Shown here in pieces: positions 3,001 to 15,000 of a stretch of 44,157 bases of DNA. Positions within the stretch are counted from its first letter, which is position 1. Every line of letters starts with the position of its first letter. The stretch is from Planctomycetota bacterium (GTDB taxonomy: Bacteria; Planctomycetota; GCA-002687715; DRQF01): assembly GCA_027001995.1 (NCBI GenBank), contig JALTLO010000182.1:1-44157 (forward strand), in the 5' to 3' direction. Made by a program: the position numbers.

Positions 3001-6000
3001 AGCAGGTGCCGACCATCGCCTCAAACGGAATGTCAAGCCAAGTGTTCAACACGCACTTTCCCCACACTGTGCGGACGACAGAAACCCGGAAATGCGACGA
3101 ATGCCACGTTTCCGAAGCCAATGACAATAATGCTTGGTTGGCTACGACCTACCTCTTAGGAAGTAATACCGTTGGTTTCATGGGAGTGAATGCCTGGGTG
3201 GGCTGCGGCCCAGAGGGCCTCTATTCTGTCCAGGTGACTGAATATGAAGAGCCACAGGCGATTATCGGCTCGAACCTACACAAGCTGGCTTGGCCCAAGT
3301 ATTACAAGGAGTTTGAGGCCCGAGGTCGCAAGCTACATAAGGACAACCACCATGGAGCCACGGATGTTCGCACCATCCAGTTGCGTGGGGAGTATGTCTA
3401 CACGGCCCAAGGCCGAGGAGGCTTCCGGGTCTACGATGTGGCCAATGTTCACAATAAGGACTTTTCCGAGAAAATCGTGACAGCACCGGTGTCACCCTTG
3501 GGACAGGATACTCACGTGTCGACCTCCTTTGCTACATCTATGGCCTTGCCCTTCAACAATCACATCAGCATGAGCCGTGTTTATCGGCCCGAAAATGAAG
3601 AGACGTTTGTTGAATACAAAGGCAAGAAGCAAAACATGCACGAGATGTATCGTTATGCTTATGTCAGTGACCGCTATGATGGTCTGGTTGTGATTGACAT
3701 CGATTCCCTTACGGACGGGAACCCCAGCAACAACTTCATCGAGAAGGTTGTCTCCTTCAATCCCAAGGGAATTCTCAATGGCGCTGAAAACCTCGCTGTT
3801 GCTGGAACTACAGTCTATATCTGTTGCGATGCTGGTTTAGTGGCTGTTGATATTGACGACCCCAGGGCACCGAAGATTAAGAAAGTGTTGCCTTGGCCGA
3901 AGGGCGTGAAAACACGTTACGTCGCCATCCAGTTCCGCTACGCCTTTGTTTGCGATAGCGAAGGGCTCACCGTGGTGGATATCACGGTCCCTGAAGAGAT
4001 GCACCCGGTGGAGAAGTTGGAGATTCCAGACGCAAGGAGCATCTACGTTGCTAAAGATTATGGTTACGTGGCTGGGGGCAAAGACGGCTTGATCATTGTT
4101 GATTTGGAAACTCCAACAAACCCCAAGGTCCAGCAGGTCTGGAGTGCCGGGGGTAAGATCAACGATCTTTACGATGTCAAAGTCGCCATGACTTATGATT
4201 CCACCTATGCTTACTTAGCTGATGGTAAGAATGGTCTTCGGGTTGTGCAGTTGGTGTCCGCTGGGGATGGCAAGCGAAGCCCTTACGGTTTCTCGCCACC
4301 ACCAATCCCGAAGTTGATTTCTGAGTTCAAGACAGACGGAAGCTGCATTTGTGTATCTAAGGCTTTGGATCGAGATCGAGCTGTGGATGAAAGCGGCAAT
4401 CAGGTGACGCTGTTTGGCCGTATTGGTGGGCGCCCGATGAATCTCAAAGAGCGCCAAAAGCTCTATATGAAGAATGGTAAGCTCTACCGGGTCACAAATG
4501 AGCCAAAGAACGGGCCTGTAACCCCACGGAAATAGGCTTCTTCGAGAGTTTCGCCCTGGATGAGGTGGAAACCTCTCCGGTGAGCAGGAAATGAAGGGCT
4601 CAATGCGGCGAGCTCGGCTTTACAAGTCGGGCTCGCCGCTGTATTTATTAGGAATCAGTGAATTCTCAGGAGACTCTTATCCCATGTCTGAACTTGCTTT
4701 TCGCATTTCGGAGCCAGGCAAGCCCACGAAAGAAGTTCCCATCGAAGTAGGCCTCAGTTTGGGCCGAAGTGATGAGAACACCGTGCCTATCGTTGACAGC
4801 AAGATCTCGGGCCGCCACGCCCATGTCATTGAAAAGGATGGCAAACTGGTCATTGAAGACTTGGGAAGTTCGAATCACACCCACGTCTTAGGGGGAGCGT
4901 CTCTCAAGGGGGGGGAAAGCCACCCCTTATCCGTCGGAACCATGATCCAATTGGGCGATACCAAATTGATCGTTGTCGCGGCGGGTAAGTCTGGCGGTGC
5001 CGATAAGACTGTGGCTGCCCAAATGATCACCCTGGACGGTGGGGCCGATGACGAGCCTGGGGGGGCGGCGGCCAACTTGGCCATGTTGGCGGCGTTTAAG
5101 GCTGCACGGGGCCGCATTGTCGTGGCTAATGAGGCGTTTCGGCAAATTGCCGATGTTGACAAGATCGAATACATCGTTGGACGCAATGGTGAGTCGACCC
5201 ATCTTTCCATCGACCACAAGGCTGTTTCCAGCAGTCACGCTGCCATTCGTTTCGAGAACAAGCGGTTTACCATTGAGGACTTGGGGAGCGCCAATGGCAC
5301 ATTCGTTGATGGCGAAAAGCTCGTTCCCAATGACAAGAAACCTCTGAAGTCAGAATCTCACATTCGATTTGGTTCAATCGACACGCTTTTCGTTGTGACT
5401 TCTGATTCATCTGGCTCGACCCCAGATTCAAAGCGCTATCGCAATGCAGTGGAAGTCTTGATTCACGAGGGTACGCTCCCGGCTTCTCAGCGAGACGAAG
5501 CGATTCGGGAGGCCCAAGCTAGTCACCATCATCCCGGTGAGGTTCTTCTCCAAAAGGGACTACTCACAGTGGAAGAGTGGCTTTCGGCCTACAAGAAAGC
5601 GGAGTTTTTTGTTGCCCCCCGTGCCCTCGGGGGAGGATCTCAGGGAGGTGGCGGCAGCAAGAAATTCTTGATCGCCTTAGTGATTCTTTTGCTGGCTGTC
5701 ATTGTCGTCTTGGTGGTGAAACCAGGGTTGTTAGGGCTGGGGGGCTAACCTGATGTCGAAATTGCTTCTGCTCGCGACCAGCACTCTTGTGACCTTCTTC
5801 TTGGGGTTGACGCTCTGGGATCATGCTGCTCCGGTCGCCTTATCTGTTGCCCCGAAATTGGCAGAGGCTGATGTCTTTCCTCATGGGAAGCACGTTCACG
5901 GGGAATGGCTGACGTCTCCAGAGGTGAAACGGGATTGCCGCGGTTGCCATGACTTCGATGAGTCCGACGGTGTCAGGCAGCCGGAACAAACCTGCGTTCT

Positions 6001-12000: not shown

Positions 12001-15000
12001 TTTCTGTCACGCAGACATGATGGAGACCAATTCCCTCAAAGGTGAGAGTCCTCATCATTACGCCAATCAGAGCTGTGCTACTTGTCATACCAGCGGTGGT
12101 GTCCGTCAAGATAATATGAGCCCCCCTGTTGCCAGCAAGCGCAACGATTTTCCGCACAAACTGCACATGAAGGTTGATGGGGGATGCTATGCCTGCCATG
12201 AATTCACTGGTTCTGATCCGAAGATGGACGTGGTAACACCGGCCCAAGTGAAGAGTTGTGTCGCTTGTCACAGTAGCCACCAGAATGTCGGCGGTCGTGA
12301 AGGCCATTGCGCGGATTGCCACAAAGGGGCAGAAGAAGGTCGTAAGAAAGATCCCGTCTATTCTCAGGAAGCAATCCTGTGGAATCGCCGGCCAGACGCG
12401 TCCTATAGCCACAATAGTCCGGGACATGTGGGGCTTACGAAAGCGGGCAAGTGTACGGACTGTCATGGTGAAGATATCTGGGAGACAAAGACTGTGGACG
12501 CCATCAAGATCCCAGTTGAAGACGACCCCAGGTGCCGTGATTGCCATTTGCGTGAACGTTTCCACTGGCGATAGAGGGGTGGTGGGAAGTCGCTCAGATC
12601 GTATAGTCGGTCCATGAAGCCCGTGACATTCATATTCTTCGCCTGTCTTTTGCAGGGGGTCATCTTTGGCTCCCTTCAAGAGGAAGGCCGGGTTGATTCC
12701 AATGCCATACAGCAGGCTCGTGACAAAGTGTTGGCCCAAGGGGACTACCAAACGGAACTCCCCAATCGCTTGAGGGAATTCAAATCATCTGAATCTTCGT
12801 CTTCTGATTCATGGCTCCGCGATTTTGTTCCATCCATAGATCTTGTCATCCGAATTATTCTCGGGATCATTGCTGGTGTTGTTTTTGTCGCCTTCGTTCG
12901 TTTCGTTCTTGATCATGTTCAGGAGCGAAAACGTGACATGGGGAAGGAAGCTCGATCAGGGGCCATGCCCATCAAGGCCGGTGATTTTCAAATTGACCTG
13001 GGAGAAATTCGGGACTTGGCGGCGCGGGGTCACCACGGAGAGGCCATTCATCTACTCTTGTTGAAGACGGTGCAAGAATTATGTCGGCTCACGAATGTGG
13101 AGATCTCTCCGGCGAAAACGAGTCGTGAGATTACTCGTGAGATTCCTTTGGAGGATTCCCCTCAGGATGACTTGGAAGCTTTGGTGCTCACTACTGAGAT
13201 TTCCCATTTTGGCGAAGTCCCAGCAACAGCCGCTGACTTTGAGAGTTGTATGCGGCGGTTTGAGAGCTTTGTGACCAATCTGGGCGGGAAGATTTCATGA
13301 CCCCCTCTGTGTTCAAGGCCCACGGAACAACAGCAGCAATTCTGGTGCTGGGAGCCTCATTCGTCTTTGCCCTCCTCATGCTTCTCTTCTCTGAGAACGA
13401 AGTTGAGCCTAACCCCAATACCAATGGCTACAGCAAGTCTTCTATTGGCCATGAGTTGCTCATCAACATGTTGGAGGAATTGGGTTATCAAGTCCGAATC
13501 AATCGCTTGACCGATCCGGGGTCGACGATTGCTGGAGACTTGGTCGTCTACGCGGAGCCCCACGCCGATTTCCTTCCGGATGGGGATGAACTGGCGAACG
13601 TTCTTGAGACTGCCGGTGCAGTCCTGTTGGTCTTACCCAAACGCCTCGGTGTAATCGATCCAGATGACCCTCAAAAAATCCTGAGAAGCTCAACAAACGT
13701 CAACGCACAGGAAGTCTTGAGCAAGTTCTTGATGAATGCTGAGGTCTGGCCCCCTGACGGTTCAGAGCTGAAGCCCATTTCGTTGACGCAGAACAGTTTC
13801 GGGAAAGTTCCCCAAGTGGCGGCGCTTCAGTTGATGGACGCGCCGTTCTTAGATGTCTTGATGAGGACGGATCAGGGGGTCTTTCTTGGACGTGATGGAG
13901 AGGCGTCAGGAAACCTATTTGTCCTTTCTGACCCAGATATTATAGCCACCCACGGCCTGATGCATGGGGACAATGCTGAGCTTGTGGTTACCATCATTGA
14001 CCATATCCTACCGGAAGGCGGCGCTATCGTTTTTGATGAATCAGCCCATGGGTTCGCCGTAAGCAAGTCCTTCTGGCAAGAGCTGTTTCGCTTTCCTTTG
14101 AGCCTGGCAACTCTGCACGGTTTCTTGGTTTTCTTGATCTTGATGTGGATCACTCTTGGGAGAATGGGACAAAAGCGGGTCTTGCCCCCGGCCATCCCAC
14201 CAGGAAAGAAATTCCTATTGGAAAACGTATCGAACCTCTTGACCTTCTATGGTCACCGGGGATTCCTCGGCCATAAGTACCTCAATAATTCCCTGCGGCG
14301 GACGGCGAATAAGTTGAGAATCAGTGGCAGTCAAGAAGAAATAGAAGTGCGCATGGAAGCTATGGCGCAACGAAGAAATCTTGCTTGGGAAGTCGAGCGA
14401 TGGCGCTCCGAGTTGGATGCAAACAAAGGCAGCACATCGCGAGGCGCTCGATCCGTTTTGGATGTTGCGCGAGAAATTCACCGATGGAATAGGGAGATGC
14501 TCAATGGATCTTGACTTGATTCGAGAAACTGTGGGGCGAATTCGCCAGGAATACAGCAAAGTTGTTCTTGGTCAAGAGCGTGTGATCGACTTGTTGTTGA
14601 ATGCCATTCTGTGTCAGGGACATGTGCTTTTAGAAGGCGTTCCTGGTACGGCTAAGACGCTTATCGCTCAGACATTCGCCTCGAGCATGTCGCTATACTT
14701 CAATCGCATTCAGTTTACCCCAGATCTCATGCCCGGTGATGTTCTGGGGACGAACCTTTTCGACTTTCAGTCCAGTTCGTTTAGTTTGACCAAGGGGCCG
14801 GTTTTTACCGAGATTCTCTTGGCCGACGAGATCAATCGCACAGCACCCAAAACGCAATCAGCTCTCTTGCAGGCTATGCAAGAAAGGGAAGTGACGATTG
14901 ACGGTAAGCACCACAAGTTGAGCGAGACCTTCATGGTCATGGCAACCCAGAATCCTATCGAACAAGAGGGCACCTATCCTCTACCCGAAGCCCAGTTGGA

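Follow-up and report, generated by a model that had tools for sequence, protein, structure and literature searches.

A conserved multiheme cytochrome gene cluster of a Planctomycetota bacterium as a putative Ptd-type, envelope-spanning electron-export system

The genes at the start of the window (the whole 44,157-nucleotide stretch analyzed, from a Planctomycetota bacterium) encode an outer-membrane barrel, three multiheme cytochromes, a membrane protein, an iron-sulfur (FeS) protein, and a tail-anchored FHA protein (Table 1). On balance, we read them as a conserved seven-gene system of the Ptd type that spans the envelope and exports electrons, passing them from the cytoplasm through a two-heme membrane protein and chains of hemes to an outer-membrane pore. 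This joint reading is modestly favored, and the five genes of the initial annotation (g55 to g59) would be the inner-membrane and periplasmic half of the system. A Pfam scan together with a motif and hydropathy script reproduced every domain and CxxCH count given for those five genes, including the 17 motifs of g56 and the 15 of g59.

Table 1. Features of the cluster, in window coordinates
Feature	Position	Strand	Description	Basis
Barrel gene	1..621	+	Outer-membrane beta-barrel, porin-like; C-terminal 206 aa of ~640 aa	Homologues and fold of a homologue
gUp	618..4535	+	1305-aa decaheme cytochrome c with C-terminal LVIVD beta-propeller repeats	10 CxxCH; LVIVD E 7.7e-22
Hairpin	4605..4639	+	GC-rich hairpin of 16 bp followed by T-rich tail	Terminator scan; gUp-g55 spacer
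g55	4684..5748	+	Tail-anchored protein with two canonical FHA domains	FHA x2, E 8.9e-32 (Pfam)
g56	5753..7903	+	716-aa periplasmic 17-heme cytochrome c with N-terminal signal or anchor	17 CxxCH; hydrophobic segment
g57	7900..9120	+	406-aa five-helix membrane protein; putative di-heme b (ferric-reductase-like) transmembrane wire	His conservation; AlphaFold2
g58	9124..10605	+	493-aa cytoplasmic protein; tandem PKA-R-like cNMP-binding domains and four-[4Fe-4S] domain of DmsB/NrfC/HycB type	Pfam
g59	10628..12574	+	648 aa; cytoplasmic FHA, one TM helix, periplasmic 15-heme cytochrome c	Pfam, motif script, family alignment

Thirty-five genome loci were collected with a g57 motif search pattern; since the pattern contained W158, H160, H162, and G166, the invariance of these residues in the loci is partly by construction. 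Among the 15 loci of the Planctomycetota type, g58 and then the FHA-multiheme gene followed in all 13 whose contig extended past g57, and a g56 homologue with 17 CxxCH motifs was present in 12 (in L001, it is split 10 + 6). This synteny upholds the earlier view that the five genes are one conserved unit, and it moves the boundaries then drawn. The barrel gene and the 10-heme LVIVD gene gUp are syntenic with the core in two distant cluster types, and the pair lies upstream in five Planctomycetota-type loci (L004, L005, L006, L008, and L009); the contigs of L001 and L002 start inside the 10-heme LVIVD gene, so that the barrel region lies off contig. Both genes are part of the unit, and the cluster starts upstream of g55. 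The downstream MoxR and DUF58 genes, which had been left as possible members, lie outside it. Matches to g59 at E<=1e-20 were found in 16 of 400 other genomes of the phylum (7 of 8 in its own family), in line with the rarity first reported (2 of 100 sampled).

An AlphaFold2 model of g57 (pLDDT 90.3) has five membrane-length helices (residues 10-28, 40-68, 155-177, 184-217, and 330-405) and not the four segments annotated initially; hydropathy had overlooked the His-bearing stretch at 155-177. Both large loops are predicted to be cytoplasmic. Of the histidines first noted as conserved, H162, H176, H385, and H399 are invariant in 59 homologues and in 17 sequences including distant types, while H160 and H67 are conserved among closer relatives only. 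The four invariant residues form two pairs, each spaced by 14 residues, on helices 3 and 5. No Pfam family matched g57 at E<=0.01 (DUF4405, E 0.024), and sub-threshold matches of the family were to b-cytochrome families throughout: DUF4405 in 40/59 homologues and, among 16 distant relatives, Ferric_reduct in 5 and Ni_hydr_CYTB in 5. An Atlas neighbor (score, 0.90) is named "putative Ferric reductase like transmembrane component." A Foldseek comparison of the model with the PDB gave no match, and a VIA search with it returned mostly generic helical bundles. In the NOX/FRE and MsrQ (YedZ)/Fre systems, electrons pass from NAD(P)H through flavin and two b hemes to an acceptor at the outer face, with the hemes held by two His pairs 13 to 14 residues apart on helices 3 and 5. 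The spacing and helices of the g57 pairs are alike, but here the flavin and FeS modules are separate proteins, the helices number five rather than six, the acceptor would be a c-heme chain, and there is no membership at the Pfam level.

The likely cytoplasmic partner, g58, has no transmembrane segment or signal peptide detectable by the motif and hydropathy script. Pfam finds two cNMP_binding domains (E 9.6e-35) and Fer4 families (Fer4_11, 31.9 bits against a cutoff of 26.2), and the phosphate-binding cassette FGEMSAISHQARSAT is present. Sixteen Cys residues in four motifs, enough for four clusters, are invariant in 38 sequences. Relatives in the PDB are PKA/PKG regulatory domains (E 1e-16 to 1e-17), ArrB (6cz7_B, 2e-9), and HycB (7z0s_B, 1.5e-7). 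Domain 1 retains the RSAT motif, leaving the pocket intact in one of the two cNMP domains. Cyclic-nucleotide gating, as proposed initially, is thus plausible for g58 itself but is not a constant of its family: of 38 relatives, 23 have lost the pocket Arg, which means that the family does not depend on gating.

The source of the electrons is suggested by other cluster types. In a second type, found at eight loci in Thermoanaerobaculia, Syntrophobacteraceae, and Binatia, a Pyr_redox flavoprotein is fused to two cNMP domains and Fer4 (8/8) and accompanied by a g57-like gene (8/8), an FHA-9/10-heme protein (8/8), the barrel (7/8), and the 10-heme LVIVD protein (6/8); the missing cases lie at contig ends. 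L029 has NuoE/F-like proteins and a Fer2_4-Fer4-cNMP-Fer4 protein beside the core, and L013 and L014 have FHA joined to FAD_binding_6, NAD_binding_1, and Fer2 (by Pfam for L014 and by similarity to L014 for L013). In 9 of 11 Myxococcota-type loci, a separate Pyr_redox protein adjoins the g57-like gene, or the matched stretch, together with 13- to 30-heme cytochromes. Such NAD(P)H flavoprotein or NuoEF-like modules support export from the cytoplasm to the outside that bypasses quinones. Because of these fused or adjacent NAD(P)H-oxidizing modules, the invariant His pairs, and the 16 invariant Cys residues, the transmembrane path first proposed (FeS protein, two b hemes, c hemes) is still the best reading.

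The same comparison bears on whether the cluster is instead a quinol-coupled respiratory module, in which g57, acting as quinol dehydrogenase or quinone reductase in the manner of NarI, FdnI, or CbcL, would exchange electrons between menaquinone and the multiheme cytochromes, with g58 as an accessory or second outlet. In NarHI and FdnHI, a di-heme b subunit is paired with a four-cluster protein, the arrangement proposed here. The FeS domain of g58 matches proteins of the ArrB, HycB, and ActB type, the g57 family has weak Ni_hydr_CYTB matches, and an NAD(P)H/flavin module is absent from the cluster in the window and from most Planctomycetota-type loci; candidates in the bacterium's own genome are all unlinked to the cluster. 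However, three other cluster types have NAD(P)H-type modules, needless with a quinol donor, fused or adjacent to the core. No quinone-site motif was identified, and it is hard to see what a cytoplasmic four-cluster protein lacking a catalytic partner would do in a quinol:cytochrome c route. We consider a quinol module unlikely.

On the periplasmic side, Pfam assigns Cytochrome_C7 and MtrC/MtrF domains to g56. In g59, the FHA domain (residues 20 to 81; E 2.9e-11) is followed by a hydrophobic segment at about 127 to 148, and all CxxCH motifs lie beyond residue 185. Both proteins match HmcA weakly and far under the cutoff (g56, E 3.4e-13; g59, E 4.3e-15). The Hmc and Tmc complexes of sulfate reducers build a transmembrane path from a big periplasmic multiheme cytochrome, a membrane cytochrome b of the NarI type, and cytoplasmic FeS proteins (HdrD-like CCG proteins), without cNMP, FHA, barrel, or LVIVD parts. 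The cluster in the window has the same three-part layout and adds all four of these.

The initial annotation took g59 for a phosphopeptide reader fused to a cytochrome. With motif positions set by alignment to GarA and Rv0020c, the canonical Asn is missing in 22/22 cytochrome-fused N-terminal FHA domains, with GR in 8/22 and Ser in 6/22. Because phosphothreonine-binding residues are missing, the noncanonical FHA of g59 is unlikely to read phosphothreonine and is more likely a docking domain. In P0244, a g58-like protein itself carries this divergent FHA as a fusion, a hint that the domain contacts g58. YscD/PrgH, TagH/Fha, and GltG likewise place a cytoplasmic FHA, one TM helix, and a periplasmic domain in series, and the FHA of YscD serves in assembly and lacks phosphothreonine-binding residues. 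The architecture of g59 is the same, but its periplasmic part is a 15-heme cytochrome; its Yop-YscD_cpl match is under the cutoff (24.3 against 33.2 bits).

The binding residues are found instead in the separate protein g55, whose two FHA domains both have the GR, SxxH, and Asn motifs; GR, Ser, and Asn are all present in the second FHA of 13/13 g55-like proteins. From these motifs, g55 is the sole likely phosphothreonine reader of the cluster. It also has a C-terminal hydrophobic tail (358-376 in the numbering of the long ORF) that was absent from the initial annotation. The longest g55 ORF is 4591-5748; the start is most likely the ATG at 4684 (354 aa), because this ATG and the AGGAG shortly before it have aligned counterparts in L001 and L002 and because the upstream hairpin is conserved. 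The gUp-g55 spacer has a fold z-score of -4.47, and its hairpin is kept in both loci apart from a double change of one G-C pair to A-U; its possible roles are those of a terminator, an attenuator, or an RNA stabilizer.

These domains also bear on the alternative offered at the outset, a redox sensor in which the periplasmic 15-heme domain signals redox state to the FHA and g55 and g58 are signaling partners rather than carriers. FHA and cNMP domains are usually regulatory, and the window holds c-di-GMP genes (EAL-HDOD and HDOD-REC-GGDEF, 19639-22819) and three Ser/Thr kinases (25878-34288). Yet the residues for phosphothreonine binding are missing from the FHA of the cytochrome, kinases accompany only 6/35 loci (1/15 of the Planctomycetota type), and there is no conserved output domain. 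The 42 c hemes of gUp, g56, and g59 (10 + 17 + 15), four FeS clusters, and di-heme b exceed what a sensor needs, as do the pore and the relatives' flavoprotein modules, with which this alternative fits poorly. A sensor is very improbable.

The outer part of the export path would be formed by the two upstream genes, which overlap by four bases. The contig start truncates the barrel gene, whose protein ends in ...TITY; homologues lie directly upstream of the 10-heme LVIVD gene or within the cluster in 14 loci. A full-length homologue (L005:605-2530), modeled by AlphaFold2 in place of the truncated gene, forms a barrel with about 19 long strands at low overall confidence (mean pLDDT 56; strands 70-86), and its best Foldseek matches in the PDB are the AlgE alginate-export barrel (E 3e-12, prob 1.00). 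The 10-heme LVIVD gene is syntenic in 13 loci. In 10 sequences drawn from loci of Planctomycetota, Thermoanaerobaculia, and Syntrophobacteraceae, all 10 of its CxxCH motifs are invariant (mean column identity, 56%). Its Atlas neighbors are LVIVD-plus-cytochrome clusters of 66 to 417 members, and a search for sequence relatives in the PDB found none. With an N-terminal VVSC that we take to be a lipobox-like signal, gUp is a candidate outer-membrane or terminal component. MtrCAB and the Geobacter Pcc/Ext systems likewise combine an outer-membrane barrel, a lipoprotein multiheme cytochrome, and periplasmic multiheme cytochromes, and gUp matches ExtM weakly (E 3.2e-23; 82 bits against a cutoff of 800). 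In contrast to these, the barrel here is AlgE-like, with some 18 to 20 strands, and the inner-membrane entry is not a quinol dehydrogenase of the NapC/CymA, ImcH, or CbcL kind.

The initial annotation called the complex undescribed, but two described clusters match its core by description. The ptdABCDEFG operon occurs in marine Alphaproteobacteria and others, Planctomycetes metagenome-assembled genomes included, and the preprint lists PtdE (cNMP and 4Fe-4S), PtdF (ferric-reductase-like), PtdG (a multiheme cytochrome beside these two), PtdB (porin), and PtdC (FAD/NAD(P) oxidoreductase), for which its authors suggest porin-cytochrome electron transfer (bioRxiv 10.1101/2023.11.21.568154). Compared with that description rather than with ptd sequences, the window's cytochromes carry 15, 17, and 10 hemes against 10, 4, and 5, and the outer cytochrome has LVIVD repeats instead of a beta-sandwich. 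The cluster here has no flavoprotein gene but has an FHA fusion and an extra double-FHA protein, and the g58 family shows four Cys motifs where the preprint counts two clusters. In Ferrigenium straubiae, the cytochrome NHC, with a cytosolic FHA, one TM helix, and nine periplasmic hemes, adjoins a five-helix membrane protein without an InterPro match and a cytosolic [4Fe-4S] protein; its authors present FHA joined to a multiheme cytochrome as previously unreported (bioRxiv 10.64898/2026.01.22.701106). That cluster comes from a betaproteobacterial Fe(II) oxidizer and has a nirK neighborhood; the accessible text mentions no cNMP domain, barrel, or LVIVD protein, and as described, the cluster is closer to the second (9/10-heme) type than to the one in the window.

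The Ferrigenium authors propose inward flow, with NHC linking outer-membrane Fe(II) oxidases to the inner membrane (bioRxiv 10.64898/2026.01.22.701106). Here, too, Fe(II), a reduced mineral, or another donor outside the cell or in the periplasm might be oxidized and electrons passed inward to the membrane or the cytoplasmic FeS protein. A 10-heme "Forkhead-associated protein" is tabulated in 27 Gallionellaceae genomes (PMC9900912), and run X1, labeled hydrothermal vent metagenome, contains 97% of the words of the stretch 4536-12574. By standard bioenergetics, however, inward transfer to low-potential FeS clusters or NAD(P)+ would oppose both redox and membrane potential, no energy-coupling subunit is present, and the fused flavoproteins of relatives are ferredoxin/NAD(P)H reductase types. 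Electron uptake is therefore improbable; the argument for outward flow is a thermodynamic one.

Gene content, motifs, conservation, synteny, and a homologue's barrel fold are observed here; from them we infer cofactor binding, protein contacts, flow direction, acceptor, and regulation. In the export system that we favor, electrons would enter g58 at its four [4Fe-4S] clusters from a cytoplasmic donor; this may be NAD(P)H via a flavoprotein or reduced ferredoxin, and no such donor is encoded in the cluster. Docked onto the cytoplasmic loops of g57, g58 would pass electrons to two stacked b hemes, the inner held by H162 and H385 and the outer by H176 and H399, bypassing the quinone pool. The periplasm would be crossed via membrane-anchored g59 and g56, with the divergent FHA of g59 probably serving in docking or assembly, placed as in the FHA-TM-periplasmic proteins of trans-envelope machines. 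Final delivery, at the outer membrane or through it, would fall to the 10-heme lipoprotein and the barrel, with the acceptor in the periplasm or outside the cell. Since the export of electrons runs down the membrane potential, some form of control is to be expected, and the one intact cyclic-nucleotide pocket of g58 is a plausible allosteric gate. The system is real and uncharacterized, and it belongs to a barely known kind of cluster.

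The genes g55 to g59 belong to a real, conserved gene system whose biochemical role is predicted. Gaps between the five genes range from -4 to 22 bases. One genome per prokaryote species was scanned with a motif for the membrane protein g57, built from 15 closer sequences, and the 35 loci obtained were annotated by similarity to the window proteins, CxxCH counts, and FHA detection. Fifteen of the 35 loci were of the window type, all labeled Planctomycetota except L007 (Bacteriovoracaceae) and L013 (labeled only "uncultured bacterium"). In all 13 window-type loci with contigs extending beyond g57, g58 and then the FHA-multihaem gene follow. 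The latter encodes 15 CxxCH motifs when complete, with 12 in L004. A g56 with 17 CxxCH motifs was present in 12 window-type loci, and a g55-like gene was present in 12 of the 15. In locus L001, the g56 homologue (L001:2843-4960) consists of two ORFs with 10 and 6 CxxCH motifs; the cause may be a frameshift or faulty assembly, or the split may be real.

Features of the window (g55 to g59 confirmed by ORF listing, Pfam, and a motif and hydropathy script)
Feature	Coordinates	Strand	Content
Barrel gene	1-621		C-terminal part, cut by the contig edge
gUp	618-4535		10-haem LVIVD lipoprotein
gUp-g55 spacer	4536-4683		148 bases
Hairpin	4605-4639		16 bp, GC rich, with a T-rich tail
g55	4591-5748 (longest ORF)	+	Two FHA domains, C-terminal hydrophobic tail
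g56	5753-7903	+	17 CxxCH
g57	7900-9120	+	Membrane protein; no Pfam family
g58	9124-10605	+	Two cNMP-binding domains and Fer4 families; no TM segment
g59	10628-12574	+	FHA at 20-81, one TM segment at about 127-148, 15 CxxCH past residue 185
Downstream module	12614-18658		DUF4129, DUF4350, MoxR AAA_3, DUF58, SpoIIM-like, and RDD genes
c-di-GMP pair	19639-22819		EAL+HDOD protein, then HDOD+receiver+GGDEF protein
Kinase paralogues	25878-34288	-	Three tandem genes, 876 to 964 aa

A gUp homologue lies immediately 5′ in 7 window-type loci. Homologues of the truncated barrel ORF were found in 6, directly 5′ of gUp in 5 of them and on the opposite strand in L015, where gUp was not found; most of the remaining window-type loci end at a contig edge. 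The initial annotation had proposed a five-gene electron conduit. The conduit idea holds for the most part, but the five-gene boundary was wrong, as the unit is larger and takes in gUp and the barrel gene upstream. The spacer between gUp and g55 carries a hairpin that is conserved in L001 and L002, where one base pair differs by compensatory change, and the annotated g55 starts (4591 or 4603) read through it. This hairpin could be a terminator or attenuator parting the outer-membrane genes from the inner-membrane genes.

Genes farther from the cluster were also considered. Six overlapping genes begin 39 bases past g59, and they were rejected as members of the system because unrelated genes lie 3′ of the g59-like gene in loci L005 and L014; they look like a separate conserved module. 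Each of the three tandem paralogues on the minus strand combines a Ser/Thr protein kinase domain with an FGE-sulfatase (formylglycine-generating-enzyme-like) domain. A link between the window kinases and the cluster was rejected, since just 6 of the 35 loci have a kinase. The c-di-GMP pair has no cyclic-AMP or cyclic-GMP cyclase gene nearby. No RNA runs were listed among the sequencing runs matching the stretch 4536-12574.

An exhaustive HMMER search with g57 returned 338 cluster representatives, 65 of them under 1e-30. H162, H176, H385, and H399 are among the residues invariant in 59 aligned homologues. The same four histidines are invariant in a second alignment of 17 sequences that includes distant types; because the motif used for the scan itself contained W158, H160, H162, and G166, only H176, H385, and H399 count as independent in that alignment. 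The AlphaFold2 model of g57 (pLDDT 90.3) has five membrane helices, and these four histidines form two pairs, each 14 residues apart, on model helices 155-177 (helix 3) and 330-405 (helix 5). Two His pairs spaced 13 to 14 residues apart on two TM helices are the pattern sought for a di-haem b protein of the ferric-reductase/b561/DUF4405 kind, and we take the layout in g57 to be the ferric-reductase/NOX arrangement. The positive-inside rule puts both large loops of g57 in the cytoplasm, which sets H162 and H385 toward the inner side of the membrane and H176 and H399 toward the outer side.

No family model (DUF4405, Ferric_reduct) scored above its curated threshold for g57 or the relatives tested. 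Sub-threshold matches to DUF4405 occurred in 40 of the 59 homologues (best E value, 1.9e-4). Among 16 distant relatives, Ferric_reduct matched 5 below threshold (best score, 21.6 bits versus a cut-off of 28), as did Ni_hydr_CYTB. A neighbor of g57 in the Atlas carries a ferric-reductase-like name (score, 0.90). Across 21 related genomes, the Ferric_reduct family gave 2 matches only, too few for a profile comparison. Foldseek with the g57 model against the PDB returned nothing at an E value of ≤0.001, and a g57-family profile against PDB sequences returned nothing under an E value of 0.1. In a wide structure search (VIA), helical bundles filled the list, mostly for residues 182 to 406, and no b-cytochrome was listed. 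The top rows were HPt-like four-helix bundles matching loop 223-366 (rmsd, 3.2; 137 aligned residues), with a Z score of 11.5 that is within the range common among helical bundles. In the model, this loop joins helices 4 and 5 on the cytoplasmic side and forms a helical bundle resembling HPt phosphotransfer proteins. An alpha/beta insertion at about residues 66 to 150 is restricted to the Planctomycetota-type proteins, that is, to the loci that have g55.

The cytoplasmic partner, g58, matches cNMP_binding twice (E value, 9.6e-35) as well as Fer4 families. Sixteen cysteines are invariant in 38 sequences (C323/326/329/333, C360/363/368/372, C392/395/398/402, and C459/462/470/474), and Fer4_11 scored 31.9 bits against a cut-off of 26.2. 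These four invariant Cys motifs mark g58 as a four-cluster protein of the DmsB/NrfC/HycB kind, and PDB relatives of its FeS domain include ArrB and HycB. The tandem cNMP domains resemble the regulatory subunits of PKA and PKG (E values, about 1e-16 to 1e-17). The phosphate-binding cassette of a cNMP domain has Gly-Glu and Arg-Ser/Thr-Ala. The cassette of domain 1 is intact (FGEMSAISHQARSAT; FGE...RSAT) and is also kept in 14 further sequences, including close relatives and distant flavoprotein-fused forms; overall, the Arg is kept in 15 of 38 sequences and replaced in 23. Domain 2 lacks Arg-Ser/Thr-Ala and is degenerate in all Planctomycetota-type members. The g58 family is large; among the 8000 candidates scored, 416 matched, and the best 120 all combined cNMP and Fer4 domains.

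Relatives of the cluster differ in the modules that surround this pair. A second cluster type, found at 8 loci in Thermoanaerobaculia, Syntrophobacteraceae, and Binatia, has the order g58-like gene, g57-like gene, FHA-9/10-haem cytochrome, barrel, and 10-haem LVIVD protein. Its g58 homologue, of about 800 aa, carries an N-terminal pyridine-nucleotide-disulphide-oxidoreductase domain (FAD/NAD(P)H) followed by two cNMP domains and the FeS domain. At locus L029 (Pirellulaceae), the input module comprises NuoE/F-like and Fer2_4-Fer4-cNMP-Fer4 proteins. A reductase combining FHA, FAD_binding_6, NAD_binding_1, and Fer2 is present in L014 (by Pfam) and L013 (by similarity to L014). Of 11 Myxococcota-type loci, 9 have Pyr_redox as a separate protein next to a g57-like gene (or the matched stretch) and 13- to 30-haem cytochromes. 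With such variant input modules beside the same core, the constant element is a g57-type membrane protein that stands between an NAD(P)H/FeS module on the cytoplasmic side and multihaem cytochromes in the periplasm. The comparison thus identifies the g57 and g58 pair as the conserved core, with interchangeable input modules and cytochromes.

No FAD/NAD(P) oxidoreductase (flavoprotein) gene was found among the ORFs and Pfam matches of positions 1 to 12574, and a search of the source genome for an NAD(P)H reductase fused to FHA or linked to the cluster returned only unlinked candidates, namely, an FNR-like-Fer2 protein in a qNOR/copper cluster (contig C197) and a stand-alone Pyr_redox protein (C136). 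At locus L040 of the same genome (G000:C197:76000-95000), positions 9014 to 12340 encode a 590-aa protein with an unassigned 250-aa N terminus, FAD_binding_6, NAD_binding_1, and Fer2, then an unassigned 257-aa protein and a multihaem cytochrome of 295 aa; genes for qNOR, multicopper oxidase, and copper-ATPase surround them. The three may be another small electron-export module. In the Thermoanaerobaculia locus L016, cytochrome c maturation genes (CcmF, CcmH, and CycH-like; L016:1031-5640) lie immediately 5′ of the cluster, and a 606-aa protein with two HbpS-like haem-degrading domains (L016:13142-14962) is encoded between the FHA-cytochrome and the barrel. Of 400 other genomes in the phylum, 16 had a g59 match at an E value of ≤1e-20; within its own family, the count was 7 of 8. 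The single-contig genome G157 matched g59 at 2.1e-54. The full-length g59 family has 19 clusters in a collection of 5.8 billion proteins, one of them labeled Myxococcota; that search gave 22 matches at an E value of ≤0.001, 3 of which cover the FHA part only.

On the predicted outer-membrane side, the truncated ORF at the contig edge is the C terminus of a protein of about 640 aa, and its family occurs in 14 loci. The model of the full-length L005 homologue consists mainly of long antiparallel strands (mean pLDDT, 56; strands, 70 to 86), and in the PDB it is closest to the outer-membrane barrel AlgE (E value, 3e-12). gUp is a 1305-aa protein with 10 CxxCH motifs, LVIVD repeats, and a lipobox-like VVSC. 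Mean column identity is 56% across phyla and all 10 CxxCH motifs are invariant, and this conservation between phyla is unusual. A PDB sequence search with gUp found no match. Among the family-model matches, those pointing to porin-cytochrome conduits (Mtr/Pcc) were just generic MtrC/MtrF domain II/IV and DmsE-family ones, all under the cut-offs.

FHA domains contact phosphopeptides through an Arg (GR), a Ser (SxxH), and an Asn (NG). The Pfam FHA model scored 44.1 bits for g59 and 109.8 bits for g55 (cut-off, 20.7), and motif positions were fixed by alignment with GarA and Rv0020c. At these sites, g59 has G-T-R, A-D-F-H, and S-L-G-T, so that the Arg is replaced by Thr (with an Arg one residue on), the phosphate-binding Ser by Ala, and the Asn by Leu. 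The Asn is missing from all 22 cytochrome-fused N-terminal FHA domains, with Thr the usual substitute; GR is kept in 8 of the 22, all of the second type, and the Ser is kept in 6. GR, SxxH, and Asn are all kept in the second FHA domain of each of 13 g55-like proteins, and both FHA domains of g55 carry the phosphothreonine-reader motif, which the g59 FHA lacks. A phosphopeptide reader fused to a multihaem cytochrome, as first suggested, is therefore not supported for g59. On our reading, the cytochrome FHA serves in docking or assembly, and g55 is the one likely reader of phosphothreonine.

This divergent FHA domain also occurs fused to the g58-like protein P0244, and canonical FHA domains are fused to reductases in L014 and P0020. 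A search with the FHA part of g59 (residues 1 to 125) returned 11 proteins and, apart from P0020, revealed no new fusion partner. Prediction of a complex of g57, g58, and g59(1-100), with the FHA as partner, gave 0.22 and 0.15 versus a mark of 0.32, without controls. The second-type 10-haem proteins of L016 (10674-13124), L017, and L019 (816 to 824 aa) have a noncanonical N-terminal FHA and a canonical C-terminal FHA. With an FHA at both ends, these proteins would pass the membrane twice, with both termini cytoplasmic.

Published clusters resemble this system. The ptdABCDEFG operon, described in a preprint and reported in Planctomycetes too, codes for multihaem cytochromes, a porin, and a ferric-reductase-like membrane protein, along with an FAD/NAD(P) oxidoreductase and a cNMP/4Fe-4S protein (bioRxiv 10.1101/2023.11.21.568154). 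By description, g58 matches PtdE, a cNMP-binding protein with 4Fe-4S clusters. The ferric-reductase-like protein of the operon, adjacent to PtdE, is PtdF; g57 adjoins g58 and has two His pairs, and its Ferric_reduct and DUF4405 matches are sub-threshold. The porin PtdB has its counterpart in the contig-edge fragment, whose family has a full-length member with an AlgE-like barrel fold in the model. The clusters differ in haem number, PtdG, PtdD, and PtdA being deca-, tetra-, and penta-haem proteins versus 15, 17, and 10 haems in the window; ptd-like counts occur elsewhere, in the 9/10-haem FHA forms of the second type and the 4- and 5-haem proteins of L029, L013, and L014. The window cluster also lacks a flavoprotein, whereas its relatives have one fused or adjacent. 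A second preprint reports, in Ferrigenium, an FHA-nonahaem cytochrome together with a membrane protein of five helices and a [4Fe-4S] protein of the cytosol and calls the FHA fusion previously unreported (bioRxiv 10.64898/2026.01.22.701106). A Gallionellaceae pangenome table lists a 10-haem "Forkhead-associated protein" (PMC9900912). The system is thus not undescribed, as the initial annotation had it, since the ptd operon and the Ferrigenium cluster match its core when compared by description. The comparison links the ptd, Ferrigenium NHC, and window clusters, each noticed separately, into one probable family. In the literature search, no paper turned up on g55, on the noncanonical FHA, or on the LVIVD variant with 15/17/10 haems; this lineage may be listed in the ptd preprint (Tables S7 and S8). 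A term search of a preprint on extracellular electron transfer in peat (10.64898/2026.05.27.727921) found no mention of FHA, propeller, cyclic nucleotide, or 4Fe-4S.

In the proposed path, electrons would pass outward from low-potential cytoplasmic donors through haem b to the c-haems. Redox and membrane potential favor outward flow and do not favor inward flow to FeS clusters or NAD(P)+, which argues for export over electron uptake; coupling to quinol and a sensing role are the other rivals. On balance, we lean toward a system that exports electrons to an external or periplasmic acceptor. It is doubtful, though conceivable, that threonine phosphorylation and a cyclic nucleotide assemble the exporting conduit or switch it on, with the tail-anchored g55 reading a phosphothreonine on a conduit subunit, the g59 FHA clamping g58 to g57, and cAMP or cGMP opening the FeS path. 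Were this so, quinone-independent, energy-dissipating electron export would be controlled on and off posttranslationally, analogous, in electron transfer, to the switch by which threonine phosphorylation controls type VI secretion.

If the path works, electrons from NAD(P)H or ferredoxin in the cytoplasm would reach the periplasm or the cell exterior without passing through quinones, by way of a NOX-like di-haem b coupled to multihaem wires. The route recurs in loci labeled Planctomycetota, Thermoanaerobaculia, Syntrophobacteraceae, Binatia, and Myxococcota and, by description, in Proteobacteria and Nitrospirales. Since the genome markers used today are quinol dehydrogenases and Mtr/Pcc proteins, such a route would alter the prediction of electron-transfer capacity. 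It would also supply a defined module for studying how cells control an energy-dissipating electron sink.
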